Source of the DNA: Candidatus Omnitrophota bacterium
GTDB lineage: Bacteria; Omnitrophota; Gorgyraeia; Pluralincolimonadales; Pluralincolimonadaceae
Assembly (NCBI GenBank): GCA_041651455.1
Contig: JBAZJG010000002.1
Span: 127,892 to 191,891, forward strand
DNA: 64,000 nt
Reading direction: 5' to 3'
The notes under the pieces were generated by a model. That model made no database searches. It had not been told where the DNA came from and saw only the letters and a list, made by a program, of their open reading frames with translations. The position numbers and the translations under genes are program-made. This document shows positions 22,501 to 35,054 of the stretch, in pieces; within the stretch, counting starts at the first letter, position 1; each line of letters begins with the position of its first letter.

Positions 22501-22652
22501 AGCTGACCGACGATATGGTCACCGCGCTCGAGTCGGCGATAAAGGACGTCCGCCGCCGCATCAAAAAATTGGATTTCTCGAAGCTTCCCGAGCGTGTCGA
22601 TGATTTCAAAAAGTGCAAGGGCTGCGATTTCGATGATATCTGCTGGGGGTAA
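19593..22652 (+). CDS. UvrD/PcrA-type superfamily-1 DNA helicase fused to a C-terminal Cas4/AddB-like PD-(D/E)xK nuclease with a 4-Cys Fe-S motif.
   Basis: 1019 aa. Walker A AGPGTGKT and Walker B MVDEFQDTNGAQ. The C-terminus has NCPRKY, a DYK catalytic motif in VDYKTGEP, and KKCKGCDFDDICWG. Confidence 0.75.
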   Translation: MELNAKQKLAAETLEGPVLVLAGPGTGKTELLSVRAANIIKSKKARPENILILTYTNAAAKAMKERLVKILGADAYNIETATFHSFANTVVLESDEAAEYIQERVQITDIEQIKLLEYILDNTDGIDKIRPFRAPYAFEREISQRITELKREGVSPSRFAEIIEKTSPDGAYIEEKHIERLSALVTVYKLYEEYKAGKNKALFDDRGRYDYDDMILFAVEAIRNEPELARALRSQYTYIMVDEFQDTNGAQMDLLFELLGSHAQGGHPSGPNICCVGDDDQSIFRFQGASVANFRELKKRFPKLQEIPLEKNYRSTKEIISLSEKIINNLPVKERVHAKELAPEKDFKKKTIEFDEFTTETEELLFIARRIKEIAKKEEVPLDEVAVLVRQRDDILKIVDTFLRAGIPYATDGKEDIAGEKRVRQMLDVLYFAHTPDIEVEQKDAYLYRILTADYMRIPMNDVLRFIADVRAKKYEQRKKGEAPTISMFSEYMGMSLSPRRMAPAAPAAALGTLLYEAESKPVHAMLMQYIKDAGVMKFILDKYDDNDLLRIRDLRALTSFVNMVKEADIARPGLTLKEFIDELETRKAHGMPLQGELVTATQEGVRIYTAHGSKGLEFHTVFIPFCLEKKRWPKRPQGVSIPLPPEVYKSKEIPTDKEILKQLDYYDETRLFYVASTRAKANLIYTASPTESAIPSSYLSGVEVKGEDEKEENLLKAALMTSNEQDPFIGTEKVLKDLVQDLSLNPTALNNYINCPRKYLYDDVLMLPSGKKQSLVFGNCAHKALEDTYNKFMKTGKFPDFAFFKEAFKRELAHEAPEAAIKTACERQVETFKAWFKEESRLPVKPLGLEKRLVVMLEDDLKFSGKYDKTEAIRGAEGRVRVVDYKTGEPDKHVKGINNSLAKKIPVSSDEFEGYLRQLIAYKLLFDNDKNESKGQKVKEGVLVFLDPVKESVAKHDLEAGEFMKKSVELTDDMVTALESAIKDVRRRIKKLDFSKLPERVDDFKKCKGCDFDDICWG

Positions 22653-22655
22653 AAG

Positions 22656-23294
22656 ATGAAAAAATGCGTTATAACATTGGCGATTCTGTTCCTGGCTCCG
22701 CAGGCGTTCTCCGCGATGATAATGCCGCCGAAGGCATGTATCGTCCTCGCCATCGGCGAGGCCCGCACGGAAGGCGCGACACCCGCGAACACGGTCTACC
22801 CGACCGAAATAGATTTCAAAAGCATCGTACGCCACGATCGCCTGCTGACAAAAGCGAAAGTTTTCGACCTCTTCAGGTCGATAGACCCCGAAAAAATAAG
22901 GTGGTCGAACTACCAGAAGAGGGACACTCTCATCGAGATGGTCGCGCCCGACCGCATACTCTTCGCGTTCGAGGAGATCGGCGGCGGAAAGGATACGATC
23001 CCGTACGGCTACAAGTTGATCGGCATACGGATACTGCAGAGGTCCATTCCCGACGAGATCTACCTGGACGGCGACTGGATGCTCCATGTATACCTGCACG
23101 ACAGGGGCACGAAGAGCGAAGGCGCGTTCGGCCGGCTCTATTACAAGGAACGGCTCGTCCCTCCGGGCAAGGTCGGGCAGGAGGAGAATACCCCATTCGG
23201 CGTGCTGAAGTATTACGGCGAGGGCAGCAATGTCCGCTGGGCCCCTTCCGGGTGGCTTTTTAAGGACAAGGGCAAAATACCGCGTACCTATTAA
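22656..23294 (+). CDS. Secreted hypothetical protein.
   Basis: 212 aa with a signal peptide (MKKCVITLAILFLAPQAFSA). No motif was recognised. Confidence 0.45.
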   Translation: MKKCVITLAILFLAPQAFSAMIMPPKACIVLAIGEARTEGATPANTVYPTEIDFKSIVRHDRLLTKAKVFDLFRSIDPEKIRWSNYQKRDTLIEMVAPDRILFAFEEIGGGKDTIPYGYKLIGIRILQRSIPDEIYLDGDWMLHVYLHDRGTKSEGAFGRLYYKERLVPPGKVGQEENTPFGVLKYYGEGSNVRWAPSGWLFKDKGKIPRTY

Positions 23295-23311
23295 AGGCAA
23301 GGAAGGCAAAT

Positions 23312-23749
23312 ATGGCTAAAAGCACGGTTTATTCAACAATCCTTGGGCTATCGCTCATCTTTTTGCTTAACACCGTTCCTGTCTCCGCTTCGCAGATATT
23401 TAAAGCCGCCTGCACGAAGCCCGACTGCGGATTCACCGCGGAATTATGCATGGGCCCGTCAAATACATCCGATTATATCGTCGGTTATTGCACCGGCTGC
23501 GGGAAAGTCGTTTATCTTGAGTATCTCAGGGAAGGCCACCTGCCTGTTGCGCGGCTAAAGGGGAGGGAGAAACCCCCTAAACCTGCAGCACAATCCTGGG
23601 ATCCCGGTACAGGCAAGGCAGTTTCGTTGTATAAATGCCCTTCCTGCAAGAAGCCCTTCAAATCGATGTATTCGGAGAATGATTTCAAGTATTGCCCGAA
23701 ATGCGGCAGCCAGGTAAAGGTAGAAAGCACCGGGAAATTTATTGATTGA
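23312..23749 (+). CDS. Secreted Cys-rich (zinc-ribbon-like) hypothetical protein.
   Basis: 145 aa with a signal peptide and paired CxxC motifs (CTGCGK, CPSC...CPKCG). Confidence 0.45.
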   Translation: MAKSTVYSTILGLSLIFLLNTVPVSASQIFKAACTKPDCGFTAELCMGPSNTSDYIVGYCTGCGKVVYLEYLREGHLPVARLKGREKPPKPAAQSWDPGTGKAVSLYKCPSCKKPFKSMYSENDFKYCPKCGSQVKVESTGKFID

Positions 23750-23772
23750 CTTATTCCATTTTAGAGCATACA

Positions 23773-23800
23773 ATTAGAATAACAATTCCGTTATTCTAAT
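23773..23800. promoter_or_regulatory. Perfect 11-bp inverted repeat ATTAGAATAAC-N6-GTTATTCTAAT, a putative operator immediately upstream of the fic RBS.
   Basis: Seen directly in the sequence. RBS GAGGTGG at 23801-23807 and the fic ATG at 23812 follow. Confidence 0.5.
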
Positions 23801-23811
23801 GAGGTGGAACA

Positions 23812-24903
23812 ATGGCAGTACCGCATAAAGTCCCTAAACTTCCTCCGAAGATCGATTACGCCGCGCTTGTGACACAGCTGGGCCGGGCGCATAACGCGCT
23901 TGGCCGCCTGAACGGACTTATTGCTAACCTGCACAATCCCGCCCTGCTGGCGGTACCTCTGCTTACCAAAGAGGCGGTCTTGAGCTCCCGGATAGAGGGG
24001 ACAAGGGCCACGCTTGAGGAGGTCTTCGAGTATGAGGCCGCGAAGAACGATTCGGAATCGACCGAGCGCGGGAAAGACGTCCGCGAAATAATCAATTACC
24101 GCTTCGCGCTGAATACCGCCCTGAAGAACCTCGAAAAAAGGCCGCTCAGCGGGAACCTCATGAAGGAACTGCACTCCGTACTGCTCGATTCCGTCCGGGG
24201 CGCCAACAAAGACAGGGGCAATTTCAGGAAACTCCAGGTATATATCGGCAAGCCCGGGGCTTCCATAGAAGAGGCAGAGTATATTCCCCCGGCCGCGGGC
24301 CAGGTGCCCGAGCTTATGGCGGACCTCGAAAAATACCTCAACTCAGATACTGAAAAAGACCCCCTCGTCCAGATAGGCATCGCGCATTACCAGTTCGAGG
24401 CGATACACCCGTTCCTCGACGGCAACGGCAGGGTGGGGCGGCTTCTTATACCGCTTTTCCTGTATGAGCGCAAGCTCCTTTCGTATCCACTGCTTTACAT
24501 AAGCGAATTTTTCGAAGAGAACAGGGAGATGTATTATGCTCTCTTGAATGATGTCCGCCTGAAGGGGGATTGGACAAGCTGGCTCAACTTCTTCCTCGAT
24601 GCCGTAAGCGAGGAATCCGGGAAGACGCAGTCGACCGTCCTTAAGATACTCGACCTGCACAAAAAGCTCACGCAGGAAGTAATGGCCGACGGGTCAGCCA
24701 ACGCCGTAGCCCTCCTGGACATAATATTTACCACCCCGGCGGTCTCGTTCGTAAGTATCAAGGAGCGGCTTAAGGCCAAGAGCAACCAGACTATCTACAA
24801 CCTCCTGGATAAATTCATGGAAAAGGGCATTTTGAAGGAGATTCCGGGCAAGAAGAGGAACAAAGTGTATGTCTTCAGGCAACTTATGGAGATATTGAAG
24901 TAA
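23812..24903 (+). CDS. fic: Fic-family AMPylation protein (class II, with an intramolecular inhibitory helix) and a C-terminal winged-helix domain.
   Basis: 363 aa. Canonical Fic motif HPFLDGNGRVGR. N-terminal inhibitory motif SSRIEG (S/TxxxEG/N). Confidence 0.85.
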   Translation: MAVPHKVPKLPPKIDYAALVTQLGRAHNALGRLNGLIANLHNPALLAVPLLTKEAVLSSRIEGTRATLEEVFEYEAAKNDSESTERGKDVREIINYRFALNTALKNLEKRPLSGNLMKELHSVLLDSVRGANKDRGNFRKLQVYIGKPGASIEEAEYIPPAAGQVPELMADLEKYLNSDTEKDPLVQIGIAHYQFEAIHPFLDGNGRVGRLLIPLFLYERKLLSYPLLYISEFFEENREMYYALLNDVRLKGDWTSWLNFFLDAVSEESGKTQSTVLKILDLHKKLTQEVMADGSANAVALLDIIFTTPAVSFVSIKERLKAKSNQTIYNLLDKFMEKGILKEIPGKKRNKVYVFRQLMEILK

Positions 24904-24904
24904 C

Positions 24905-25276
24905 ATGCCCATACTGATCGACGGCTGGAACATGGTCCGCCAAGAAGGCTCAGGGATAGATCATGACGACGCCCTGGCCGGCGCCATGCACCTGATCGCT
25001 ATCCTGGAGAAGTTCCAGGAGTCCCACGCCGACCCGATCACTCTTGTATTCGACAGCAAGAATGAATATCTCGATATACCGAACAGGAGCACGGCAAAAC
25101 TGCATATCGTCGCGGCCCGGAACGCCGATAACTGGATCAAACGCCACATTGACAGCATCCCGCCGCGCCAGCGCCGCAACCTGCGCGTCGTCTCCTCCGA
25201 CCGCTCGCTGTATTTTTATGCGAAGGATGCGCGGGCAACGCCGATGAAATGTGAGGAGTTTTGGGAAAAATTGTAA
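24905..25276 (+). CDS. Small NYN/PIN-like (YacP-like) domain protein.
   Basis: 123 aa. The N-terminal PILIDGWNMV resembles the NYN/YacP start (LLVDGYNV). It lies 1 nt downstream of fic. Confidence 0.35.
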   Translation: MPILIDGWNMVRQEGSGIDHDDALAGAMHLIAILEKFQESHADPITLVFDSKNEYLDIPNRSTAKLHIVAARNADNWIKRHIDSIPPRQRRNLRVVSSDRSLYFYAKDARATPMKCEEFWEKL

Positions 25277-25299
25277 TTAAAAAGGTATTTTAAGAAAGA

Positions 25300-26133
25300 A
25301 TGAAGAAAATATCAAAGCCTGACGAAGATAATAATTTAACCTCGGCAAAGCAATTTTTAAAATGGGCTGGCGGTAAAAAAGCTTTGTTGCAAGATATTGA
25401 GAAATTCGTTCCTTCAGATTACAATAAATACTACGAACCTTTTCTCGGAGGAGGTGCCTTATTTTTCAAGCTTGAGCCAAGCGTATCGCAACTTTCAGAC
25501 ATAAACAGCGAATTAATTAATACATATCAACAAGTTAAAAATAACGTTAACGATATTATTAAACAATTAAAATCTATGAAATATAACAAAAGCACTTATT
25601 ACAAAATTCGTTCGCTTAAAACTACTGATAAAGTTGTAAGAGCCGCAAGATTTATTTATCTTAATAGAACTTGCTGGAATGGATTGTACAGAGAAAATAA
25701 GAAAGGTGAATTTAATGTTCCGATTGGCAAATATGAAAATCCCTTAATTTGCGATTCCGACAATTTAATTAATGCTAGTAGGATGTTGGAAAAAACAGAA
25801 TTGACCAAAGGCGATTTTAAGCTAGTATTAAAAAATTGCTCCAAAGGCGATTTGATATACCTCGATCCACCTTATGTTACTTCCCACAAAGACAACGGGT
25901 TCATTGAGTATAATTCTAAAATATTTTCTTTAGAAGATCAGCTTAGATTAAGAAATACTATGATACGATTAGACAAAAAAGGATGCAAGCTCATTATGAG
26001 TAATGCAGATCATAAATTTATTAAAAAAATATATAAGAATTTTAATATTAATTATGTTTCACGAAAGAGTTTAATAGCGGCAGATACTTTAAAACGTAAA
26101 GATGTGAAAGAGCTAATAATAACAAATTTCTGA
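25300..26133 (+). CDS. Dam-family (D12 class) DNA N6-adenine methyltransferase.
   Basis: 277 aa. FLKWAGGKK, EPFLGGGALFF (FxGxG) and the catalytic LDPPY motif. Confidence 0.8.
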   Translation: MKKISKPDEDNNLTSAKQFLKWAGGKKALLQDIEKFVPSDYNKYYEPFLGGGALFFKLEPSVSQLSDINSELINTYQQVKNNVNDIIKQLKSMKYNKSTYYKIRSLKTTDKVVRAARFIYLNRTCWNGLYRENKKGEFNVPIGKYENPLICDSDNLINASRMLEKTELTKGDFKLVLKNCSKGDLIYLDPPYVTSHKDNGFIEYNSKIFSLEDQLRLRNTMIRLDKKGCKLIMSNADHKFIKKIYKNFNINYVSRKSLIAADTLKRKDVKELIITNF

Positions 26134-26147
26134 AAGGAAGGTTAAAT

Positions 26148-27089
26148 ATGAAAAGTACGAAATTAGACAATATTTCTCCCGATTTAATAACTAAAAATCC
26201 AGATAACCCGAGACTAGTATTTCGTCAGGAAGAATTAGATACTCTATTAAATTCCATAAAGAAAGTTGGGATTAGAGTCCCGCTTTCAATTTACGAAGAA
26301 ACTGAAAAAAAGAAATATGTATTATTGGACGGAGAAAGACGTTGGATGTGTGCAAAAAAGCTTAATTTGGATAAAATTCCCGTAATAATTGAGCCGAAGC
26401 CATCTAGATTAGAAAATATTTTAAGAATGTTTAATATACATAATGTTAGAGTACAGTGGGATCTATATGCCACTGCACTGAAACTACAAGAAGTAAAGAG
26501 ATTACTAGAAAAAGAGGGTAAACCAGATTCCATTAAGGACCTAGCTGCTGTTACAGGAGTTTCAGAAACAACTGTTAAAAGAGCATTCGAACTATTGAAA
26601 TTACCAAAAAAATACCTTCATTTATTGGAAGAAGAGCTTAAAAGGCCTAAGTCTGAGCAAAAATTCAGCGAAGATTTTTTTCTAGAAATGATGAAAGCGG
26701 TAAAAGTGATAGAGCGATATACACCAGAAATTATCGAGAAAACGTCTAAGACAAAAATAATGGATAGTTTCAAGGACAAATATGAAAAAGGAACAATAAC
26801 AAATATTGTTAAATTTAGAAATGTGAGTAAAATCGCTCGTTCCGAAAACGCCGGCGTCCCCTCTAGTAAGGCGGTTCCGATATTGAAGAAATTAATCTCC
26901 GATCCGAAATATACAATTGATGATGCTTATCAAGATTCCGTAGCGAAAGCCTACGAGGACAGGTCTCTTACAAGAGATATTGAATCTATATCCGAGAGAT
27001 TAAGCGAAATAAATAAGAAGCGCTTGAGTCCTGAATTTAAGGCATTGCTAAAAAAAATGAAAAATATAATTGAGACATTACTAGAGTAA
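26148..27089 (+). CDS. ParB/Sulfiredoxin N-terminal-domain protein (ParB-like nuclease/CTPase fold) with a helical C-terminal domain.
   Basis: 313 aa. IRVPLSIYEE...YVLLDGERRWMCAKKL matches the ParB box II GERRxRA. Confidence 0.65.
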   Translation: MKSTKLDNISPDLITKNPDNPRLVFRQEELDTLLNSIKKVGIRVPLSIYEETEKKKYVLLDGERRWMCAKKLNLDKIPVIIEPKPSRLENILRMFNIHNVRVQWDLYATALKLQEVKRLLEKEGKPDSIKDLAAVTGVSETTVKRAFELLKLPKKYLHLLEEELKRPKSEQKFSEDFFLEMMKAVKVIERYTPEIIEKTSKTKIMDSFKDKYEKGTITNIVKFRNVSKIARSENAGVPSSKAVPILKKLISDPKYTIDDAYQDSVAKAYEDRSLTRDIESISERLSEINKKRLSPEFKALLKKMKNIIETLLE

Positions 27090-27092
27090 GCT

Positions 27093-27926
27093 ATGAAATT
27101 TGAAATTCTCGATAAAGAACTATGGCCTATCGCAAAATCTTTGATAACGCAGTATCGAAGAAAAGGATATAAAACGATATTGATAGAGAAACCTTTTGAT
27201 AGAGCTGCCTCTTTTAGGCCTACGCTAATATGCAAAAAAGGAAACGAAAATATTGCAATAGAAATTAGAAATGACCCCGTTTTTAGTGAATATTTTGAGG
27301 ATTTTGTAAAAGATTGCCTTGCGGAAAGAAGACCTGTGAAAGTTTATCTAGCTATGCCAAGTATTCTAGGTGAAGAAGAAATTGCCTTAACACATAGTTT
27401 TATGAGTAAGGCAAATGGTTATGGAGTCGGCGTATTTTTGGTTCACGAAAAAGAAGTAATAGAATATATTAAAAGCGTGAAATGTAATATGAGGATCGGG
27501 CCAAATGATTGCATAATATCTTCTCGAGGCAAGGATAAAATATTGCCAATTATTAGTAGATTTAATAAAGGCGAGCCGATAGATGCTATTCGAGATATTA
27601 CAGAACTCGTTGAAAACCTAGTAGATAATTTAGCAAAAAAGGCTTCGAAAAAAAGAAAAGTTGTTCCTAGAATTAAAGAAGTTACTGATATGAATTTTGA
27701 AACTAAAATTAATTTACTATCAGCATCTGATTGGCACGGAAAACATCAAAAAAAGCATTTTAATGAAGATTTCAAATCTGATTTGAAATCTTTCAAGGGG
27801 GCAAGGAATCTATCGCATCACCCTAGAGATAAAGTATTAAGCAAAAAATTAGAGCAACAATTAATTGAGCGCATGCTGATGGGTACGAGATTGAGCAATG
27901 ACTTGTTAGTTTGTCTGTTTAAGTAA
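27093..27926 (+). CDS. Hypothetical protein in the island, function unknown.
   Basis: 277 aa, AT-rich codon usage. It lies 4 nt after the parB-like gene, so it is probably co-operonic. No motif recognised. Confidence 0.45.
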   Translation: MKFEILDKELWPIAKSLITQYRRKGYKTILIEKPFDRAASFRPTLICKKGNENIAIEIRNDPVFSEYFEDFVKDCLAERRPVKVYLAMPSILGEEEIALTHSFMSKANGYGVGVFLVHEKEVIEYIKSVKCNMRIGPNDCIISSRGKDKILPIISRFNKGEPIDAIRDITELVENLVDNLAKKASKKRKVVPRIKEVTDMNFETKINLLSASDWHGKHQKKHFNEDFKSDLKSFKGARNLSHHPRDKVLSKKLEQQLIERMLMGTRLSNDLLVCLFK

Positions 27927-28128
27927 AGTAGTCTCAGGCATAATTAATATTGATTAATACAAAAAACTATTCAGTGAAAAATGTGCGAACCGTGCTGGTA
28001 TGAGGGATAAGGAAAGCTATGGGATAAATATATTTATGAAAGAAAATGCCTCCTTTTAGCGTCTATTGAAAAGAGGAGTAAAGAAACCTTACATTGACGC
28101 ATGAATAGGGAGGTGTTAAAATACGAAC

Positions 28129-29151
28129 ATGAACCAAAAAATTTTAGGACAATATTTTACCAAAAAAGATAGATGGCTAAAAGCCCATATTAAAGAATTT
28201 ATTACATCTAGTGGCTGTAGTGAGATTTACGATCCCTTTGCCGGGAATGGAGATTTACTAAAACTCTCTGACAGTCTTGGAATCACTAAAGTATTTGGCT
28301 TGGATATCGATCCTAAAAGAGATTTTCAAGTGAATGATAGTTTGCTAAAAATACCCACTAGAAAAAATGCGATAATAGTTACAAATCCTCCGTACTTATC
28401 TAATTATAGCGCTAAAAGAAAGGGTATTTATGATAATACAGCAAAATACTTTATTGGCTCAGAATATAATGATCTATACTTGATAGCGCTTGAAAAAATG
28501 TTGCAAGCGCAAGAATGTGTTGTTGCAATTGTTCCCGAAACCTTTATAAATAGTAATTTTAAGCATAAATATCGGTTAAATTCGATTACTATAGTAGAAG
28601 AAAATTGTTTTGATGATACAGAGACGCCGATATGTGTTCTTTGCTTTGATGGCAAGGCAAAAGGATATTCAGAAATTAAGGTATATAGAAATGACGAATA
28701 TTTAAATAATCTGGGTTATTATGAAAAATTAAGATTAAAGCCTGGAAAATACATTGCAATTTCTTTTAATGACGCTTCAGGAGATATTGCATTAAGAGCA
28801 GTAGATACGACAAATCCTAGCTCTACAATAAGATTTATGAAAAAAGAAGAGCTCGATTACGATTTAAAAGGAATAAAGGTGAGTTCTAGGTTAATAACAA
28901 TAGTAAAACTGGATAAGTTAAAAAACGATAAACTAGAATCTTATTTACGGGAATGTAATAAGATCCTAGCAAGCTATAGAGACAAAACGAATGACGTGCT
29001 TTTATCACCCTTTAAAGGAAATATGAAAAATGGTCGTAGAAGACGGCGGCTAGATTACGAAACCGCACGGGCTATACTTGAAAATGCATATAATAATATA
29101 TTTGGAGAAGAGCTATTATGGACAACGTCCTCCTATTCGAATACTCGCTAA
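28129..29151 (+). CDS. Gamma-class DNA N6-adenine methyltransferase (Eco57I/TaqI-like; type II R-M methyltransferase).
   Basis: 340 aa. Motif X LGQYFT, motif I DPFAGNGDLL and motif IV NPPY. A TTGACG -35-like box and GGGAGG RBS lie upstream. Confidence 0.75.
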   Translation: MNQKILGQYFTKKDRWLKAHIKEFITSSGCSEIYDPFAGNGDLLKLSDSLGITKVFGLDIDPKRDFQVNDSLLKIPTRKNAIIVTNPPYLSNYSAKRKGIYDNTAKYFIGSEYNDLYLIALEKMLQAQECVVAIVPETFINSNFKHKYRLNSITIVEENCFDDTETPICVLCFDGKAKGYSEIKVYRNDEYLNNLGYYEKLRLKPGKYIAISFNDASGDIALRAVDTTNPSSTIRFMKKEELDYDLKGIKVSSRLITIVKLDKLKNDKLESYLRECNKILASYRDKTNDVLLSPFKGNMKNGRRRRRLDYETARAILENAYNNIFGEELLWTTSSYSNTR

Positions 29152-30062
29152 GCAATAAAGAACAAATATTCGACGATGCCAATAAGAAGGAAATCATAGT
29201 AATTACAGATAATGCTAAGAAAAAGAACAAAGCTATTAGTGGCAATGAAAGATTAATCGAACTGATAACAGCGTATCATGCCATGTATGGTAAGCTAACC
29301 AAGAAACAGGACGATGATATTATTAAGGAAATGGATTCGATACTATTTAAAGTACAGCACATGAATTATTCTGCATTCTCGCAGTATTTTATGGTATGGG
29401 ATATGCCATACTCTGTATTGCAGACTGAAAAAGAAAAAGAAAGAATCAGACTGCTACGCGGATTGCTAATTAAATATATCAAAGATAGGCATTCGATGTA
29501 TTTGTCGCACGGTTATTCGAATATTATTTTACAGGTATTATCTGATAATTACTCACATAAAAGGAGTGGTCCCACAGGAATAAATAAAATAATTATGCTT
29601 GCTGAAAAAGCGGGATTTAAAAGATATCAAAAGGACAATAATATAGAGAAAGATTCTTTTTATCTGTTACCCGATAAAAAAGACGGAGAGAAGCACTTCA
29701 AAAATATATGTAAAATACGTGGCATTAGTTTTAAATGGAGTAAAGCAAAGCAGGGTAAAATGCCAGATTGCTATATCCAGAAAGGTTCAAAAGCATATAT
29801 AATTGAGCATAAGCATAAGAAAGGCGGCGGTGGGGGACAATACGGTGCAATTGTAGAAATAGTCGACCTGCTGAAGTACACCGATAAAAATATATCGTAT
29901 GTAGCATTTATGGATGGAGTGATGTTCAATGAGCTAATCGAAGCATCCACTGACAATAAAATGTCAAAAGCAAAAAACGATATCTATAAGTATCTTAATA
30001 AAAATAAGAACAATTATTTTGTTAATACTGTAGGATTCTCTAAGCTTCTACAAAGTATTTAA
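29118..30062 (+). CDS. Putative type II restriction endonuclease (PD-(D/E)xK), cognate to the upstream methyltransferase.
   Basis: 314 aa overlapping the methyltransferase gene end. MPDCYIQKGSKAYIIEHK fits PD...(D/E)xK. Confidence 0.45.
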   Translation: MDNVLLFEYSLSNKEQIFDDANKKEIIVITDNAKKKNKAISGNERLIELITAYHAMYGKLTKKQDDDIIKEMDSILFKVQHMNYSAFSQYFMVWDMPYSVLQTEKEKERIRLLRGLLIKYIKDRHSMYLSHGYSNIILQVLSDNYSHKRSGPTGINKIIMLAEKAGFKRYQKDNNIEKDSFYLLPDKKDGEKHFKNICKIRGISFKWSKAKQGKMPDCYIQKGSKAYIIEHKHKKGGGGGQYGAIVEIVDLLKYTDKNISYVAFMDGVMFNELIEASTDNKMSKAKNDIYKYLNKNKNNYFVNTVGFSKLLQSI

Positions 30063-30164
30063 TTGCCGGTACCTCCAATCTAAGTATGCTCTGAGCAAGT
30101 CAATTTAAAATATTAGTGACGTATAAAAAGGGGCAGTTTACAAAGCGTCCTAGAATAACTTGTT

Positions 30165-30860
30165 TTGGAAATATTTCTCGTGAAAAGGAATAAATCAATG
30201 GGGAACGATGAGATAAAGGCCTATTTTTGGAAATCAGCCGTTGAATACAGTAAAGGGGATATTACTCAACTTCTTAGCGCAAGATTATCTTGCGCAGGCC
30301 CGTTATTAAGTACTATTTTATCAGGCATCGATAATTTGGGAGGTATATGCTATAAGTTTAAAGATAATAGCAAAGCAAGGTCTATCAAATTTATGAGCGA
30401 AAAAATGAAAATACCTGCGGAGGTAGCAAACTTCCTATATTCAAGCGTAAGGTGTGGTATTGTTCACCAAGGGATGCCAAAAATTGGCCTTAAATTTTTT
30501 GTAGAATATAATCGTCTTGATAAAGGTGCTATTTTCTATAAATGTTCCGAGGGTTATATCTGGTTAAATGTTGTTGAATTAGCTTATTCTTATATTGAGA
30601 CCATTGATAGTATTAGAACAAATGCTGACACGCATATTCATTTTATTCCGTCCCCAAATGATGAAGTACAGCATATTTTTGATCAAGCCGTTAGTAAGGT
30701 TGATAAAAATATAGAAGACCTACTATTAAAGATTATGGAAAAAAAAGAATCTGAGCAAATTGAAAAATTAGAACGCGGCAAAATCACGGCAATAAGTAGT
30801 AGTTCAGCATTTACTCCAGACAATACTTTAATTAGTTGCACTTATCCAATAGAATTATAA
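30165..30860 (+). CDS. Hypothetical protein in the island, function unknown.
   Basis: 231 aa. A more likely start is the internal MGNDEIKAY (ATG at 30198, RBS AAAGGA 8 nt upstream). No motif recognised. Confidence 0.4.
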   Translation: MEIFLVKRNKSMGNDEIKAYFWKSAVEYSKGDITQLLSARLSCAGPLLSTILSGIDNLGGICYKFKDNSKARSIKFMSEKMKIPAEVANFLYSSVRCGIVHQGMPKIGLKFFVEYNRLDKGAIFYKCSEGYIWLNVVELAYSYIETIDSIRTNADTHIHFIPSPNDEVQHIFDQAVSKVDKNIEDLLLKIMEKKESEQIEKLERGKITAISSSSAFTPDNTLISCTYPIEL

Positions 30861-30999
30861 ATTTATTTTTGTGTTTAGGCAGCGTTTTATATACATAGAA
30901 GTACAAAGAATGCAAAAGGGGCAAGATGCAAAGAATCCTGTAGTGTCATGTTTACAAGAGCGCCTCATAATATAATACGTCCCTAGGGGATAAGTTAAA

Positions 31000-32427
31000 A
31001 TGGCATTAACAAAAACAAAAGCATATTTTCGCGAAATACTTGTGTCTAATTTTACTTTTTCTCAAATTCATAACTTAATGGAACAAGCGGGTATCGACAG
31101 AGTTCATGGAGCTGGACAAAATTACTTCAAAGGTAAGCCGTCGAAACCCTCTCTAGTTGATGAATATTATAAAGGAGCCGAGCGCGATAGAAATGGAGAT
31201 GAAAAATTATTAGAGGCTATCAAATTATTATTATCCAAATACGAAGGCCTTAACCCTCCTACCGAAGTAGAAAACCTAATAAAAGCATTAAAAGACGAAA
31301 AACAATCGGCTATACTGGCTCCTTATGGTGAGGCCATCAATAGTGTTAGGACACATATCGAGTCTACCGAGCATAGTACAGAAAAATCAGAAGAATTGCG
31401 CGATGTATTTTTATGTCATGCCAGTAAGGATAAGGAAGATTATATAAGGCCATTCTTAGAGAGGTTAAAAAGAGAAAAAATTACTTACTGGTATGATGAA
31501 GCCGAAATAAAATGGGGAGACAGTTTGGTAGGCAAAATAAGCGAAGGGTTAAGAAAATCAAAATATATAATATTATTTATAAGTAAAAATTTTCTTGAAG
31601 GGAATTGGACAGAAAAAGAATTAAATGCAGCTTTGGGTATGGAAATTGGGTCTGGAGGCATAAAAGCTCTTCCTTTATTTATAGGAGATGCCTCAGATAT
31701 AAAACTGATTCTTGAAAAATATCCGTTATTGGCTGACAAAAAATATGAAAAATGGAATAAGGGCATCGAAGCATTAATCGGTGCTTTAAAAATACGCCTA
31801 GGTGAAAACGTGGGTTATGCGGGAACAATTATGAGAGCAACTGAAAAGCGCGAAGGGACTAGTAAAGAAAACAAAAAGGAACTTCATGTAAATTACAAGA
31901 TATTATCAAATGCAATAATAGGCGGCATTGCATTTATTTCTGTAGGTTTTACGTTACTAGCCATTAATTTTAACTTCTTCAATGCACCTAATAAAACCTC
32001 GACATCTATACCAAAGGTACATATTTCTCAGGAATATCCTTCTTCGCAGGGGTATTCTTATAATCAATATATTGATCTAACAGCAGGAGATCCGGCTGTT
32101 ATGACTTTATTATCAGAAGATCAGCCAATGTGGCTTGGGATGATTAATGTCGATACTTTTAATATAAAAAACCCTATTTTATTTTTAAACTTTGATGGAA
32201 ATGTTAATGTCGATGTTAAACGTCCCGAATCTGATAGATGGGCAGAAATGGATCCAGGGAAACAGTATAACATTAGAATTAATGACGAGATTCAACCTGG
32301 AAATAGAGCAAAATTACCCCCCTTTTATGTCAGATTCCAAAAAGCGGGAATCTATCATGTGTTATATGCAATATCGACGGACGATAGTTTTCCAAGAAGG
32401 GGCTCTTTTGATATTAAAGTAAAATAG
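31000..32427 (+). CDS. TIR-domain protein with a single transmembrane helix and a C-terminal domain of unknown function.
   Basis: 475 aa. The TIR core DVFLCHASKDKEDYIRPFLERLKREKITYWYDEAEIKWGDSLVGKISEGLRKSKYIILFISKNFLEGNWTEKEL spans about aa 135-260. A transmembrane helix IIGGIAFISVGFTLLAINF lies near aa 300. A TATAAT box is at 30971-30976. Confidence 0.75.
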   Translation: MALTKTKAYFREILVSNFTFSQIHNLMEQAGIDRVHGAGQNYFKGKPSKPSLVDEYYKGAERDRNGDEKLLEAIKLLLSKYEGLNPPTEVENLIKALKDEKQSAILAPYGEAINSVRTHIESTEHSTEKSEELRDVFLCHASKDKEDYIRPFLERLKREKITYWYDEAEIKWGDSLVGKISEGLRKSKYIILFISKNFLEGNWTEKELNAALGMEIGSGGIKALPLFIGDASDIKLILEKYPLLADKKYEKWNKGIEALIGALKIRLGENVGYAGTIMRATEKREGTSKENKKELHVNYKILSNAIIGGIAFISVGFTLLAINFNFFNAPNKTSTSIPKVHISQEYPSSQGYSYNQYIDLTAGDPAVMTLLSEDQPMWLGMINVDTFNIKNPILFLNFDGNVNVDVKRPESDRWAEMDPGKQYNIRINDEIQPGNRAKLPPFYVRFQKAGIYHVLYAISTDDSFPRRGSFDIKVK

Positions 32428-32740
32428 TTTAAGGTTTAATTAACGGTGCATAAATAGGCTATTAACCGAAAGCCCTGCGCGACGTCATAACGAATTCTCA
32501 TGTTTAAAGACCGCAGCGACGCCGGAGAAAAGCTATCTTCGTCCTTTGAAAATAATAACGTGTGATTTTGTTTGTACCGGCATAGCATGAAGGAGGTGAT
32601 GGAGGTCAAACAATGATGCCGGGCAAGCGGTTGAGATAAACAGGCAGGGGACCCCACGGGGTTACCCCGATCCCCAGTAATCTGAAAGATTACGGGGATT
32701 AATCCCGGAAATTCTTCGAATTTCTCGGGACAAGCGCGGT

Positions 32741-32759
32741 CAAATCTCGCGGAGATTTG
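32741..32759. promoter_or_regulatory. Perfect 8-bp inverted repeat CAAATCTC-GCG-GAGATTTG upstream of the SIMPL gene.
   Basis: Seen directly, within a 385-nt non-coding region. The same region also contains the stem CCCCAGTAATC/GATTACGGGG (32674-32699) and the palindrome GGGATTAATCCC. Confidence 0.35.
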
Positions 32760-32815
32760 CCCTGTCGGGCCCTGCGGGTAAATTTTGCTTCGCAAAATTT
32801 AGTAAGGGGAGAAAG

Positions 32816-33568
32816 ATGGAGAAGTACGGTTTCCTGCGCAACGCGCAGATAGTGATTTTGGGGATATGTTTTGTAGTGGCGGCGATAGGCTCAGCGGCGA
32901 TATTGACCGACGGGATGGTGAAGTTCAAGAAGGCCTCGGCAGAGGTGATAAACGTCACCGGCTCGGCCGAGAAGAGGATAACGTCGGATTACGCGGTATG
33001 GACGGCCGAGTTCTCGGCGCGGGACCCGCAGATGAAGGCCGCGTTCGCCAGGTTAAAAGAGGACACGGCCAAGGTCAGGGCCTACCTCGCGTCCAAAGGG
33101 ATAACCGAAGGCGAGATGATCGTTTCGCAGGTGGAGACGGCGGTCATCTACAAGAAGAACGAGAAGGGCATCGCCACCAACGAGATCGAGGCCTATTCCT
33201 TAAGCCAGGGGATAGAAGTGCGCTCGGCCGACGTCGCCAAGATAACCGCCGTGTCGCGCGAATCGACGGGCTTGATCGAGCAGGACATCCGGTTCGTTTC
33301 GCACCCGCCGCAGTATTTTTACACCAAGCTGGCAGAGTTGAAGCTCGAGATGTTAGGCGCGGCCTCGGCCGACGCCAAAAAACGGGCCGAACAGATAGCG
33401 TCGGCGTCCGGCAACAGGGTCGGCAGGATACGCTCGGCCGATATGGGCGTCTTCCAGATAACGCCGGTCAATTCGACCGAGGTCTCGGACTGGGGCAGTA
33501 ACGACACCTCATCGCTCGAGAAGAAGGTCTTCGCGGTCGTCCATGCGGATTTTGCGATAACGGAATAG
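32816..33568 (+). CDS. SIMPL-domain (DUF541) periplasmic/membrane protein.
   Basis: 250 aa with an N-terminal transmembrane helix and SIMPL-like spacing. RBS AAGGGGAG. Confidence 0.6.
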   Translation: MEKYGFLRNAQIVILGICFVVAAIGSAAILTDGMVKFKKASAEVINVTGSAEKRITSDYAVWTAEFSARDPQMKAAFARLKEDTAKVRAYLASKGITEGEMIVSQVETAVIYKKNEKGIATNEIEAYSLSQGIEVRSADVAKITAVSRESTGLIEQDIRFVSHPPQYFYTKLAELKLEMLGAASADAKKRAEQIASASGNRVGRIRSADMGVFQITPVNSTEVSDWGSNDTSSLEKKVFAVVHADFAITE

Positions 33569-33587
33569 GGGCGGAATATAGCAGATC

Positions 33588-33920
33588 ATGCCCAAACGCC
33601 TTAAATGCCTCAAACCGGTAGTCGACTCGCGCACGAGGGTGCTGATACTCGGTTCGTTCCCCGGGCCGGAGTCGCTGGCGAGGCAGCTCAGATAATAATA
33701 TCAAAAACCCCGAATTTAATGATATACTATCGCTGTTAAAGGCGCATCCGAAGATCAAAATGGTATGCTTTAACGGCAGGAAGGCGGAAGAGGCGTTCCG
33801 CAGGGCGTTCGGCAGGCATCTGCCGGACGGCATGATCCTGAAGCCGCTGCCTTCAACGAGCTCCGCTAACGCGCAATTATCACCGGAAGAAAAGAAAAGG
33901 ATATGGCTTCGCGTATTCTC
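33588..33920 (+). pseudogene. Frameshifted, degraded hypoxanthine/uracil-DNA glycosylase (UDG family 6-like HDG) pseudogene.
   Basis: The N-terminus MPKRLKCLKPVVDSRTRVLILGSFPGPESLARQLR runs into TAA TAA. The +1 frame continues ...KNPEFNDILSLLKAHPKIKMVCFNGRKAEEAFRRAF...LPSTSSANAQLSPEEKKRIW, matching the HDG C-terminus (FNG...LPSTSPANA). The break is in an AT-rich patch near 33690-33700. Confidence 0.5.
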
Positions 33921-35054
33921 AAATATCTGACGGTCGTATTGTCCTGCATGATGCTTGCCGGCTGCGCGTCGCTTCCCGTGCATAAAGGCCCGTCATATTC
34001 CCTCGATGATATCTATAAGCGCCTGAGTTATAAGACCGACGGCGATTACAGGGTAGTCGACATCTTTTACGCGACGAGCCGGGAAGGCAGCAAACCCAAA
34101 CTTGCCAAAGAGACCGCATACGGCACCTTAAATATCAGGATAGACCCGAGGGTCAGGATAGGGACGATGCTGCCGGACCAGCTCAAGAGCAAGGGCATCC
34201 TGGAGCTCCGGGACACGAACAAGCTGGAACCCGACGCTTTCATAAAGCGGCTCTCCGCGGCTATACAGGCGTCTCCCCATAAATCCCTGCTCGTGCTCAT
34301 ATTCGGCTATAAGGACGGTTTTGAGGCCACGGCGATGAAGGCCGCGTATTTCGCGTACCTTCTTGATGTCGATACGCCTGTGTTATTGTTCGATTGGCCC
34401 GGCGACCAGCCGGTCAGCATCGGCGGTTATATGAAGGCGCAGTCGCTTGCCTCGGCCTCGGGGCCGTACCTGGCGGAGGTGCTCGCGAAGGTCATACGCG
34501 AGGCCAAGCCGGAGAAGGTATGGATAGAGGCGTCGAGCCTCGGATGCCAGGTCGCCTGCGACGCGTTTGGGGAACTCTATAAATATCCCGACTTTGTCGA
34601 TATCGATACCGAGATAGACCACGTGATACTCGCGGCTCCCGACGTCGGCAGTGACGAGTTCAGGGGGAAGTTCAAGGACGAGCTGATGGCTTTGTCGAAT
34701 AAACTCACCGTCTATGTATCCTCCGACGATAACGCCCTTCTGATGAGCGGTTTCATAAACGGCGAGAAGAAGCTCGGCCGGGTGAAACTGCGGGTCAAGG
34801 ACCCGGAACAGCTCGAGGAGGCGAGGGCGCTGCTGTATTTGAAATCGCTCGCGCCGGAGCGGCTGACGGTCATAGATGTCACGCCGATCAATAACGCGAG
34901 CTTCAAGCACGGCTATTACCTCGAGTGCCCGGGCTATTACGATGATTTTTACATGCGGATATTTGACACCGAGCCTCGGATAAACAGGCATCTCTACCTG
35001 CTCAAGACCGCCGAAGGCGCGGATTACTGGGTCATGCAGGACCCGAAAGAATAA
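33903..35054 (+). CDS. Lipoprotein of the alpha/beta-hydrolase superfamily (DUF900-like).
   Basis: 383 aa with lipobox MLAGC and a Ser in GDQPVSIGGY. Family assignment is tentative. Confidence 0.45.
   Translation: MASRILKYLTVVLSCMMLAGCASLPVHKGPSYSLDDIYKRLSYKTDGDYRVVDIFYATSREGSKPKLAKETAYGTLNIRIDPRVRIGTMLPDQLKSKGILELRDTNKLEPDAFIKRLSAAIQASPHKSLLVLIFGYKDGFEATAMKAAYFAYLLDVDTPVLLFDWPGDQPVSIGGYMKAQSLASASGPYLAEVLAKVIREAKPEKVWIEASSLGCQVACDAFGELYKYPDFVDIDTEIDHVILAAPDVGSDEFRGKFKDELMALSNKLTVYVSSDDNALLMSGFINGEKKLGRVKLRVKDPEQLEEARALLYLKSLAPERLTVIDVTPINNASFKHGYYLECPGYYDDFYMRIFDTEPRINRHLYLLKTAEGADYWVMQDPKE

Follow-up and report, generated by a model that had tools for sequence, protein, structure and literature searches.

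PrrC and RloC are anticodon nucleases that guard type I restriction-modification (R-M) systems; they are HEPN RNases encoded within R-M operons. They tie an RNA-targeting HEPN effector to a DNA-methylation-based distinction of self from non-self (PMC3710099), and both are ABC-ATPase fusions that need a complete type I enzyme. In type II R-M systems of the DpnII/MboI class, a D12-class adenine methylase is closely linked to a protein of the restriction-endonuclease fold, and such systems are found in defence islands. ParB-fold proteins also occur beside DNA-modifying enzymes, which they regulate or activate on dsDNA: the ParB homologues DndB and DpdB are accessory to the modifying enzymes of the Dnd and Dpd systems (PMC10853773, PMC12839542), and ParB176 activates a phage thymine dioxygenase on dsDNA (PMC13229309). 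The combination of all three components appears as a table row, "HEPN in operon with ParB and DNA methylase", for the HEPN family MAE_28990 (Anantharaman et al. 2013, Biol Direct 8:15, Table 1); as given in that table, the entry is a row alone, without mechanism or experiment. This row is the sole earlier notice that we found of a gene trio such as the one described below, and no follow-up paper was present in the literature searched.

Results and Discussion

The low-GC island

The window analysed here, 64,000 nucleotides of the chromosome of an uncultured Candidatus Omnitrophota bacterium, contains a compositionally foreign, AT-rich segment of 7.3 kb delimited by maximum-likelihood change points at 25244 and 32577, with a mean GC content of 0.331 vs. 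0.563 outside. The host was assigned from the names that NCBI gives to identical proteins. In 500-bp windows, the GC content stays at 0.29–0.36 from about 25250 to 32450, and the island mean (0.329) lies 8.6 SD below that of the rest of the 64 kb (0.563 ± 0.027, minimum 0.494, 113 windows). All seven island genes (P1 to P7) lie on the plus strand and have a GC3 of 0.25–0.35, compared with 0.70–0.81 for most flanking genes and 0.56–0.57 for two of them; the composition is thus far from uniform. The initial annotation of this DNA had described a fall from about 60% to about 30–35% GC with a recovery some 7 kb later; the drop and its span were reproduced, but the host level is about 56%. It had also placed the drop directly after a fic/NYN gene pair, and the left change point indeed falls within the final 11 codons of the NYN gene. 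This SoFic and NYN_YacP pair (23812–25276, plus strand; PADLOC SoFic 1.9e-116, PF05991 4.1e-12) has the GC content of the host, abuts the left edge and is a resident defence gene that was already there at the insertion point. The right change point lies 150 bp beyond the stop codon of the last island gene, P7, in a non-coding border region (32428–32815) whose GC content is intermediate up to about 32577 and which holds a palindrome at 32671–32730.

Composition and gene content together support the earlier view of a foreign, horizontally acquired segment built of defence-type genes. Its acquisition was probably recent, because amelioration is lacking. The boundaries had been reported to bear no integrase, transposase or tRNA, in agreement with our scans: the window has no tRNA, Rfam gave zero matches across 22000–35000, no direct repeat was found flanking the island, no locus with the insertion site still empty was recovered, and the long ORFs scanned between 19.6 and 44.5 kb contain no integrase or transposase domain.

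The methylase, ParB-type and HEPN-domain trio

The first gene, P1 (25300–26133, plus strand), encodes a Dam-family (D12 class) N6-adenine DNA methyltransferase with FLGGG and DPPY motifs, matched by TIGR00571 (4.8e-82; 275.6 bits, cutoff 114.85), PF02086 (2.2e-56) and PADLOC MTase_II (1.2e-91). The second, P2 (26148–27089, plus strand), encodes a ParB/Noc-type protein in which a CTP-binding-type domain at the N-terminus is followed by a ParB HTH and by a C-terminal domain of some 150 aa that is specific to the family. It is matched by PF02195 (ParB_N, 6.5e-17) and TIGR00180 (80.2 bits, cutoff 58.45), and its best PDB matches are the CTP-dependent structures of Caulobacter ParB (3.8e-15), Noc, Spo0J and KorB. 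Both calls thus agree with the initial annotation. Within the P2 family, NPDNPR..F and DGERRW.CAKK are invariant; the ParB "ENxQR" box reads HNVRVQ in P2, which may alter or abolish CTP hydrolysis.

The product of the third gene, P3 (27093–27926, plus strand; 277 aa), the presumed effector, had been listed as an unknown protein, but fold matches and family motifs resolve it into two domains. Its N-terminal half has a PD-(D/E)xK (AHJR/NucS-like) fold with Thr44 at the position of the motif II Asp; this position is Thr in 16 of the 17 family members and Ala in the remaining one, the family does not conserve the motif III Lys, and E32 and E57 are invariant. Its C-terminal half forms a HEPN domain in which R238-x4-H243 is invariant, and the Rx4H region is the most strongly conserved part of the protein. 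The family is rare, with only 17 clusters among 5.8e9 proteins. No Pfam HEPN model matches its members, a profile search gave no similarity of P3 to the DpnII or MboI families, and PADLOC v2 returned no significant match for either P2 or P3.

The gene order is conserved. A P2-type gene lies directly 5′ of P3 in all seven independent lineages in which the upstream side is visible (the window, P0007, P0009, P0003, P0010, P0014 and P0017), down to 28% identity, and where coordinates are available the two genes are separated by a 3-nt gap or share a 4-nt overlap. The Dam gene adjoins them in 6/6 lineages where this could be observed, on the opposite strand in P0014. Of the three proteins, P2 shows the highest conservation (55–66% identity vs. 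41–51% for P3). Elsewhere, defence islands surround the trio, with a BglII R-M pair at one locus (L002), and AbiEii, WYL, a pPIWI-associated nuclease, MmeI/Eco57I-like MTases and T5orf172 at another (L006). On this sequence evidence, Dam, the ParB-type protein and P3 constitute a real conserved module without a named system, as the initial annotation had supposed.

The trio differs from each of its described counterparts. Compared with the DpnII/MboI class, it has a conserved ParB-type third gene, a nuclease domain without the canonical Asp and Lys, and a fused HEPN domain, while a solitary Dam and a ParB-type protein stand in place of the complete type I enzyme that PrrC and RloC require. P2 carries an HTH and is classed with the chromosomal ParB/Noc proteins, whereas DndB and NsnA fall within the DUF262/DGQHR branch; ParB176 is without an obvious DNA-binding domain, and the partner of P2 is an ordinary Dam. 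The MAE_28990 neighbourhood shows the same three-component logic, but the N-terminal partners given in that table are HEPN/RES-NTD1 and HEPN/Toprim-NTD1, whereas that of P3 is an AHJR-like nuclease fold, and since the P3 family matches no Pfam HEPN model, P3 is by sequence no more than a possible member of that family.

In the mechanism that we propose, P1 would mark host DNA, probably at GATC, and P2, with its intact CTP-binding signature and ParB HTH, would act on DNA as a sensor, loader or activator. The nuclease-fold domain of P3, its canonical catalytic Asp gone, would probably serve for DNA or partner binding, and the HEPN domain would be the likely catalytic output, cleaving RNA. The signalling would run from the detection of unmarked DNA through RNA cleavage by P3 to growth arrest or abortive infection.

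The nuclease domain of P3 might still be a non-canonical DNase acting via E32 and E57, which would bring the trio nearer to a plain R-M system. Carried further, this would make the trio a classical type II R-M system in which Dam protects, P3 is a DNA endonuclease with a non-canonical site at these two residues, P2 merely regulates, as a C-protein analogue, or helps with specificity, and the HEPN domain has a structural or back-up role. We consider this unlikely, given the substituted motif II Asp and the unconserved motif III Lys; moreover, the most conserved block of P3 is the Rx4H region of the HEPN domain, P2 is better conserved than the supposed endonuclease, and its full ParB nucleotide-binding signature exceeds the needs of a simple repressor.

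The R-M pair

P4 (28129–29151, plus strand) encodes a gamma-class N6A DNA methyltransferase with the motifs GQYFT, DPFAGNG and VTNPPY in gamma order, matched over its full length by phrog_18657 (2.9e-28) and by PF07669 (1.6e-5). It overlaps by 34 nt with P5 (29118–30062, plus strand), for which 274 relatives were found at E<=1e-3. R124, Q139, D143, D217, E230 and K232 are invariant in P5, with PD217...E230xK232 kept across 37 relatives, 20 of which match the Tsp45I family PF06300 (best 1.2e-9), whereas P5 itself falls under the detection level of this model. Judging by this family overlap, the PD...ExK motif and the N6A methylase partner, P4 and P5 are a conventional Tsp45I-like type II R-M pair. 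The enzyme classes named in the initial annotation hold for both genes.

The last two genes

P6 (30198–30860, plus strand) had been read as an unknown 231-aa protein. By family alignment, its start is the ATG at 30198 rather than the TTG at 30165, giving 220 aa; otherwise, all seven co-directional ORFs are present as first described. An invariant VRCGxxHQGMPKxG, with its Rx4H, and HEPN fold matches make P6 a probable, rare, stand-alone HEPN protein, although no Pfam family matches it. In structural matching, P6 comes closest to HEPN toxins and Abi proteins that stand alone (HEPN/MNT toxins, AbiV), from which it differs by a beta-hairpin insert, a C-terminal helical extension and the absence of an MNT antitoxin gene beside it. 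P6 homologues occur by themselves; one is located in a defence island, beside genes for a type I S subunit, AAA_15 and DUF2130. P6 probably works as a one-gene system, an RNase of the abortive-infection or toxin-like kind.

P7 (31000–32427, plus strand) comprises an N-domain (residues 1–130), a TIR domain (about 133–260; PF13676 8e-18), a single TM segment (about 301–328), which is the one hydrophobic segment in the hydropathy profile, and a C-terminal domain of about 150 aa, which bears out the earlier TIR-transmembrane call. The AbTIR NADase matches at 1.9e-20, in an alignment that pairs NWTEKEL with DWTNYEL and places Glu207 at the catalytic Glu. Basic residues flank the TM segment on the TIR side, and the C-terminal domain is predicted to lie outside the cytoplasm. 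PDC-S66, a PADLOC candidate profile for single-gene TIR defence proteins (1e-33), matches only the TIR part (profile positions 123–241 of 282); beyond it, P7 has a distinct N-domain, the TM helix and the C-terminal domain, a combination found only piecewise in the mosaic relatives P0038 and P0039, with the TIR+TM+C-terminal layout recurring in P0039. No near full-length relative is present among the TIR matches listed, most of which are single proteins of about 305 aa or fusions to other domains. As far as motifs and layout tell, P7 is a stand-alone membrane-anchored TIR protein with a catalytic Glu, comparable to the E. coli TIR+TM proteins with proven anti-phage activity (PMC11350192). It would probably deplete NAD+ or make an NAD-derived product in the cytoplasm, triggered by a signal that the extracytoplasmic C-terminal domain would receive.

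The initial annotation had joined P6 and P7 into one module. The genes are neighbours on the same strand, and each is preceded by a copy of an element of about 40 nt (30126–30165 before P6 and 30914–30953 before P7, both on the plus strand), which share the exact 10-mer AAAAGGGGCA, found nowhere else within the 64 kb. This element could mean co-regulation, which is some argument for a functional link. In Thoeris, separate effectors are activated by TIR-produced signals, and the HEPN RNase might likewise respond to a TIR-made signal, in the manner of Thoeris or type III CRISPR signalling. Such a two-gene system seems to us quite improbable. An adjacent TIR gene was absent from the three P6-homologue loci fetched (L007 and L008/L009, two distinct homologues), P6 has no recognisable ligand-sensing domain, the TIR relatives occur mostly alone or in other fusions, and the 139-nt gap with an own upstream element for each gene suggests separate transcription. 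The two-gene module is therefore not supported; with P6 and P7 counted separately, the island has four units instead of three.

Origin of the trio and integrity of the island

ParB is a classical partition protein. The trio could accordingly be left over from a decayed mobile element that it served to maintain, with ParB for partition, Dam for anti-restriction and HEPN as an addiction toxin; phages and conjugative elements often carry free-standing or ParB-fused methylases (PMC5512222), and the GC content of the trio is below that of its flanks in every host. We regard this origin as very unlikely, since none of the trio loci has ParA, replication, integrase or conjugation genes beside it, no relatives were found in 72,556 plasmids, 50,697 phage genomes or IMG/VR contigs, no palindromic (parS-like) loading site common to the trio loci was found, and the neighbours are defence genes. 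A defence role of the trio thus remains our preferred reading.

An assembly or binning chimera, conceivable for so sharp a shift in a metagenome-assembled genome, is practically dismissed by the independent 7,453-bp Logan metagenome contig L001, which, even though it ends near both edges (on the right inside the palindrome), is 100% identical to positions 25235–32687 of the window, including a host-type stretch of 42 bp at the left end and one of about 230 bp at the right end, so that both junctions have been assembled twice, and by the tight, orderly gene spacing over the left junction.

Conclusions

Taken together, the data are probably best explained by an acquired defence island in an Omnitrophota chromosome, made of four independently mobile units with the roles proposed above: the P1–P3 trio, the P4 and P5 pair, P6 and P7. 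Three of these anti-virus modules are of familiar kinds, and the trio is the fourth, rare and conserved. In other words, this is a typical defence island in which one module, the trio, is a real candidate for a methylation-linked system of an uncharacterised kind.

Composition and boundaries of the island

The GC profile in 500-bp windows clearly showed values of 0.29–0.36 from about 25250 to 32450. The island mean of 0.329 is 8.6 SD under the mean for the rest of the 64 kb (0.563, SD 0.027, minimum 0.494; 113 windows of 500 bp). Maximum-likelihood change points in GC were placed at 25244 and 32577, and the GC3 of the seven island genes was 0.25–0.35 vs. 0.70–0.81 in most of their neighbours. 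The abrupt drop in GC and its later recovery, as claimed in the initial annotation, are thus borne out by the sliding windows, the change points and GC3, and the host GC of about 60% given there has to be lowered to about 56%. The surroundings in the window are ordinary chromosome, with Fe-hydrogenase, Suf, glycosyltransferase, MsrAB and similar genes. Furthermore, an independently assembled Logan contig of 7,453 bp (L001) was found to be 100% identical to positions 25235–32687, such that both junctions have been assembled twice, which makes a chimeric origin of the island very unlikely. The left end of this contig lies no more than 9 bp from the left change point, a position compatible with a branching assembly graph, from which we tentatively infer the co-existence of island-free variants.

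The features of an integrase- or tRNA-type genomic island (integrase or transposase, tRNA target, direct repeats) are absent. Scans for tRNA/tmRNA, Rfam families, repeats and domains upheld the earlier observation that no integrase, transposase or tRNA marks the edges: no tRNA or tmRNA was detected in the window, no Rfam family across 22–35 kb at E ≤ 1, no direct or inverted repeats flanking the island edges, and no integrase or transposase domain among the scanned long ORFs of 19.6–44.5 kb. Exact-protein look-ups of the flanking NYN, SoFic and SIMPL proteins for sister genomes or an empty site returned nothing, and since neither was obtained, the exact junctions, the mechanism of acquisition and its recent date can only be inferred.

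The left change point lies in the NYN ORF, within its final 11 codons. Truncation of the NYN gene by the island, prompted by a Pfam match ending at profile position 126 of 166, was considered and rejected; no NYN remnant was found in any frame of 32428–32830, and the C-terminus CEEFWEKL resembles the end of the YacP core in B. subtilis Rae1. The left junction would be at or just before the NYN stop codon. On the right, a non-coding stretch of 390 bp (32428–32815), with no Rfam match and with intermediate GC up to about 32577, separates the TIR gene from the SIMPL gene, and the insert may extend into this non-coding DNA for about 150–260 bp past the TIR gene. An imperfect palindrome is located at 32671–32730, and L001 terminates inside it, at 32687. 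A 30-nt repeat (77% identity; 27919–27948 and 32415–32444) runs across the stop codons of the third and the seventh island genes, so that one copy lies at the 3′ end of the first module and the other at that of the whole island; either chance, given the AT-rich DNA, or assembly cassette by cassette could account for it.

Across the 64 kb, the + strand carries nearly all long ORFs and the cumulative GC skew climbs steadily, the co-orientation of genes being very strong for a 56%-GC chromosome. Within the host-GC part (1–25276 and 32461–64000), GATC was observed 144 times where a maximal-order Markov model predicts 242 (O/E 0.60), which makes it the second most depleted 4-bp palindrome after CTAG (O/E 0.20). 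The depletion could reflect past or present GATC-directed restriction pressure, relevant to an incoming Dam module.

The left flank is a + strand gene pair (23812–25276) comprising SoFic (PADLOC 1.9e-116) and, 1 nt later, a short NYN_YacP gene for a Rae1-like RNase. SoFic has been described as a single-gene system, and the coupled NYN partner may therefore make a two-gene variant. Directly before SoFic, three tightly spaced genes of host GC (19593–23749) code for a fusion of UvrD helicase and PD-(D/E)xK nuclease (1019 aa), a protein without annotation (212 aa) and a Zn-ribbon protein (145 aa); the three could represent a housekeeping helicase-nuclease or a further uncharacterised defence unit. 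Gabija was rejected for the UvrD-nuclease (19593–22652), which matches GajB models (2e-67), because none of its neighbours matches GajA.

The distal genes of the island

The seven ORFs are present as initially described, save that P6 most likely starts at ATG 30198 and not at the upstream TTG 30165, giving 220 aa in place of 231 aa. The NCBI record starts P3 29 residues too late (248 aa), the N-terminus MKFEIL being conserved across the P3 family. The distances between the genes point to four transcription units: P1-P2-P3 (14 and 3 nt apart), the overlapping P4-P5, P6, and P7.

P4 (28129–29151) is a gamma-class N6A methylase with the motifs GQYFT, DPFAGNG and VTNPPY and a match to phrog_18657 (3e-28). 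It overlaps by 34 nt with the endonuclease gene P5 (29118–30062), whose product has no direct family match. An exhaustive search returned 274 relatives of P5 of uniform length (about 320 aa), in which P216-D217...E230-x-K232 is invariant, and Pfam Tsp45I (PF06300) was matched by 20 of 37 full-length relatives (best 1.2e-9) and not by P5 itself. As in type II R-M systems, a methyltransferase with SAM and NPPY motifs adjoins an endonuclease with PD...(D/E)xK. Since the active-site motif of P5 is invariant and its relatives include matches to Tsp45I, we conclude that P4/P5 is an ordinary type II R-M pair, which would act by standard site-specific methylation and cleavage. No match to P5 was found in plasmids by tblastn, PDB sequence searches with P5 and its profile returned noise only, and the contig with a viral P5 homologue is cut at the gene.

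P6 probably acts alone, as an RNase-type protein of putative HEPN kind in abortive infection or as a toxin; it had no match in plasmids by tblastn, and a PDB sequence search gave noise only. The proposal that P6 and the TIR-transmembrane protein P7 form a module found no support, as none of the three retrieved loci with a P6 homologue (two distinct homologues; L007 and L008/L009) has an adjacent TIR gene. In L008/L009 (1–9000), the P6 homologue follows a type I S subunit, two AAA_15/AAA_21 ATPases, DUF2130 and two unannotated ORFs; because of these neighbours and an adjacent IS (HTH_Tnp_1 + rve), this is regarded as another defence island where a solo HEPN-like gene travels. Among the relatives of P7, TIR proteins of about 305 aa and fusions of TIR to other domains predominate. 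One hint of a link between P6 and P7 is a pair of elements of about 40 nt (30126–30165 and 30914–30953; 70% identity), located 30–45 nt upstream of the two genes. Both hold the identical 10-mer AAAAGGGGCA, which has no other occurrence in the 64 kb, and a similar string, AAAAAGGGGGCGGCAAAG, stands ahead of the gene for the TIR-transmembrane homologue P0039 (L017, 1–55). The element may act as a common operator or promoter. Consensus scans for promoters and terminators did not rise above shuffled expectation.

The TIR domain of P7 (31000–32427) is near the AbTIR and TcpB NADase type. Its NWTEKEL aligns with DWTNYEL of AbTIR, whose Glu is the AbTIR catalytic residue, such that P7 bears the putative NADase Glu in the pattern W-x-x-x-E-L. 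One hydrophobic segment (301–328) lies between a Lys/Arg-rich stretch and a C-terminal domain of about 150 residues; the positive-inside rule predicts that the TIR domain is cytoplasmic and the C-terminal domain outside. P7 is probably an NAD+-consuming TIR protein controlled from outside the membrane. P7 is a mosaic that has the N-domain and TIR in common with P0038, and the TIR, transmembrane segment and C-terminus in common with P0039, whose contig starts at the gene with the upstream side not visible. Two relatives of the P7 TIR domain at 54–65% identity, P0040 (617 aa, Candidatus Omnitrophota, 435-kb contig) and P0038 (747 aa), bear a concanavalin-A/laminin-G-like C-terminal domain in place of that of P7, which suggests a P7-type TIR family with exchangeable putative sensor domains.

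The ThsB models of Thoeris match P7 through its TIR domain only (best 8.5e-18), and a ThsA-type effector (SIR2/SLOG or Macro/TM), which Thoeris needs, is absent among the island genes. PADLOC PDC-S66 (E 1e-33) likewise aligns over the TIR part only, with profile positions 123–241 of 282 on residues 107–227. Retron-TIR/RT-TIR (NF042941, PADLOC RT-TIR_XII) was rejected, with 131 bits vs. a cutoff of 600 in the TIR region only and no RT domain. The predicted topology parallels that of Toll-like receptors (TIR cytoplasmic, sensor-like domain outside), which is interesting and not unprecedented. In E. coli, anti-phage activity has already been proven for TIR+TM systems (PMC11350192). The whole island is a typical defence island, where P4/P5, P6 and P7 belong to known kinds.

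A conserved Dam–ParB–HEPN trio

The product of P1 (25300–26133) is a Dam-family methylase (TIGR00571, 275.6 bits vs. a cutoff of 114.85) with the SAM-binding PFLGGGALF and the catalytic LDPPYV of that family (TIGR00571/PF02086). P2 (26148–27089) matches TIGR00180 with 80.2 bits vs. a cutoff of 58.45 and, judged by its sequence, is of the chromosomal ParB/Noc type, not of the DUF262 type. Its best solved relatives are Caulobacter ParB, which aligns over P2 residues 13–160, Noc, Spo0J and KorB, and it carries the predicted nucleotide-binding motifs NPxxPR..F and GERRxR(A), followed by an HTH, as found in ParB/Noc/Spo0J. In P2 these read NPDNPR..F and DGERRW.CAKK and, together with the ParB HTH, they are invariant across five family members. 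Box III of ParB contains ENxQR, the catalytic Glu/Gln region for CTP hydrolysis; P2 lacks this motif and has the segment IHNV-RVQ (HNVRVQ) aligned there. The last 150 or so residues of P2 are family-specific yet well conserved. No ParA gene was found in any trio locus, no parS-like palindromes or DNA k-mers were common to five trio loci, and tblastn of P2 against plasmids revealed generic ParB N-terminal similarity only.

The third gene, P3 (27093–27926, + strand), encodes two domains. The N-terminal one has the alpha-beta-beta-beta-alpha-beta core of the PD-(D/E)xK fold, from which the full catalytic set is missing: P43-T44 stands at the PD position, Thr being shared by 16 of the 17 members and replaced by Ala in one, and the K position is variable, with E57 invariant. 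The C-terminal domain is a four-helix up-down bundle with Rx4-6H at the start of the last helix, as in HEPN domains. A search of the 17 members with curated HEPN sequence models gave one weak HEPN_Apea match only (E 0.1), PDB sequence searches with P3 returned noise, and neither P2 nor P3 had a significant match in PADLOC v2.

Members of the P3 family are very rare: a set of 5.8 billion proteins contained 17 clusters of them, and they occurred in 2 of 185,579 GTDB species representatives (scanned with a sub-alignment as the query, the full alignment being too diverse); a metagenome scan added one more locus. A P2-type gene lies directly 5′ of P3 in every lineage with a visible upstream side, i.e., in the window and at the loci of the P3 relatives P0007 (a Planctomycetia MAG and several marine metagenomes, L002–L005 and L010), P0009 (L006/L011), P0003 (L012), P0010 (55%-GC soil contigs L013–L015), P0014 and P0017. 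For P0017, the most divergent relative (28% identity), the evidence is a 59-residue upstream fragment matching the P2 C-terminus with 93.7% probability. Moreover, a Dam gene is adjacent in six of the six lineages where it is visible, and the association has survived rearrangement, since the Dam gene of P0014 lies downstream on the opposite strand. Identity is 55–66% for P2 vs. 41–51% for P3, P2 being the most conserved of the trio. The suggestion that Dam, a ParB-like protein and an unknown protein form a module not obviously corresponding to a named system is supported: the trio recurs in independent lineages. This compact 2.6-kb trio retains its synteny across Omnitrophota, Planctomycetia, soil and sediment lineages, down to 28% identity.

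The surroundings of the trio differ in every lineage and often comprise defence genes, and its GC is below that of the flanks in every host. In L002, a BglII-type R-M pair is placed around the trio. L006 (1–16220; GCA_964524195.1, CAZGCC010000004.1) is a second dense defence island around it, with AbiEii, a WYL regulator, pP_pnuc_1 (2.3e-28), HTH_17, a split MmeI/Eco57I-like methylase and T5orf172/ResIII; the pPIWI-associated nuclease (pP_pnuc_1) has no obvious pPIWI next door. No relatives of P3 were found in PLSDB plasmids or INPHARED phages (tblastn), or in IMG/VR viral contigs.

Discussion

In this work, we regard the trio as an R-M-associated HEPN module, a neighbourhood type that was noticed before and never analysed or tested. 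The nearest prior description, within Table 1 of Anantharaman et al. 2013, is the single row for the MAE_28990 HEPN family, where a ParB and DNA methylase gene neighbourhood is listed, likewise present at the trio. P3 may belong to that family; none of the 17 P3-family members matches a Pfam HEPN model. Our literature search returned no further paper on the MAE_28990 family and no experimental ParB+Dam+HEPN system.

The synteny, folds and motifs of the trio allow us to propose the following activities and order of steps. Dam (P1) would write a self mark, probably at GATC, to judge from family membership only. P2 would be the DNA-engaging component because of its ParB/Noc-type nucleotide pocket and HTH, and because it is the most conserved of the three. 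P3 would act as the effector via its HEPN domain, and its degenerate nuclease fold may serve for DNA or partner recognition. Each of these steps has a precedent, since HEPN RNases occur inside R-M operons (PrrC, RloC and DUF4145 fusions; PMC3710099) and ParB-fold proteins partner with modification enzymes: DndB and DpdB regulate or activate DNA-modifying enzymes (PMC10853773, PMC12839542), and ParB176 activates a thymine dioxygenase, specifically on dsDNA (PMC13229309).

Taken further, the trio might represent a distinct class of immune system, where a ParB-type nucleotide-gated clamp would survey DNA on which Dam writes the self status and, on meeting unmarked DNA, would license the HEPN RNase, such that the mark is read out as RNA and not DNA cleavage. 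A chromosomal-type ParB CTP switch would thereby gain its first role in defence. We put this forward as a tentative and rather doubtful proposal. In the main rival explanation, P3 would be a non-canonical DNase and the ParB-type protein an accessory of what is otherwise a plain R-M system; given the invariant E32 and E57 of P3 this keeps some probability, and we consider it unlikely.

New immune mechanisms have proved to be obtainable from defence islands, and the known defence systems come mostly from cultured Proteobacteria and Firmicutes. The present island, from an uncultured phylum, cleanly isolates a three-gene module in which three well-studied activities, DNA methylation by Dam, a nucleotide switch of the ParB type and a HEPN domain, come together in a previously untested combination. 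If unmarked DNA does license a HEPN RNase through the ParB-type clamp, the biology of the ParB CTP switch would extend from chromosome segregation and transcription control to immunity, and an R-M-like system whose effector targets RNA would be added to those known.
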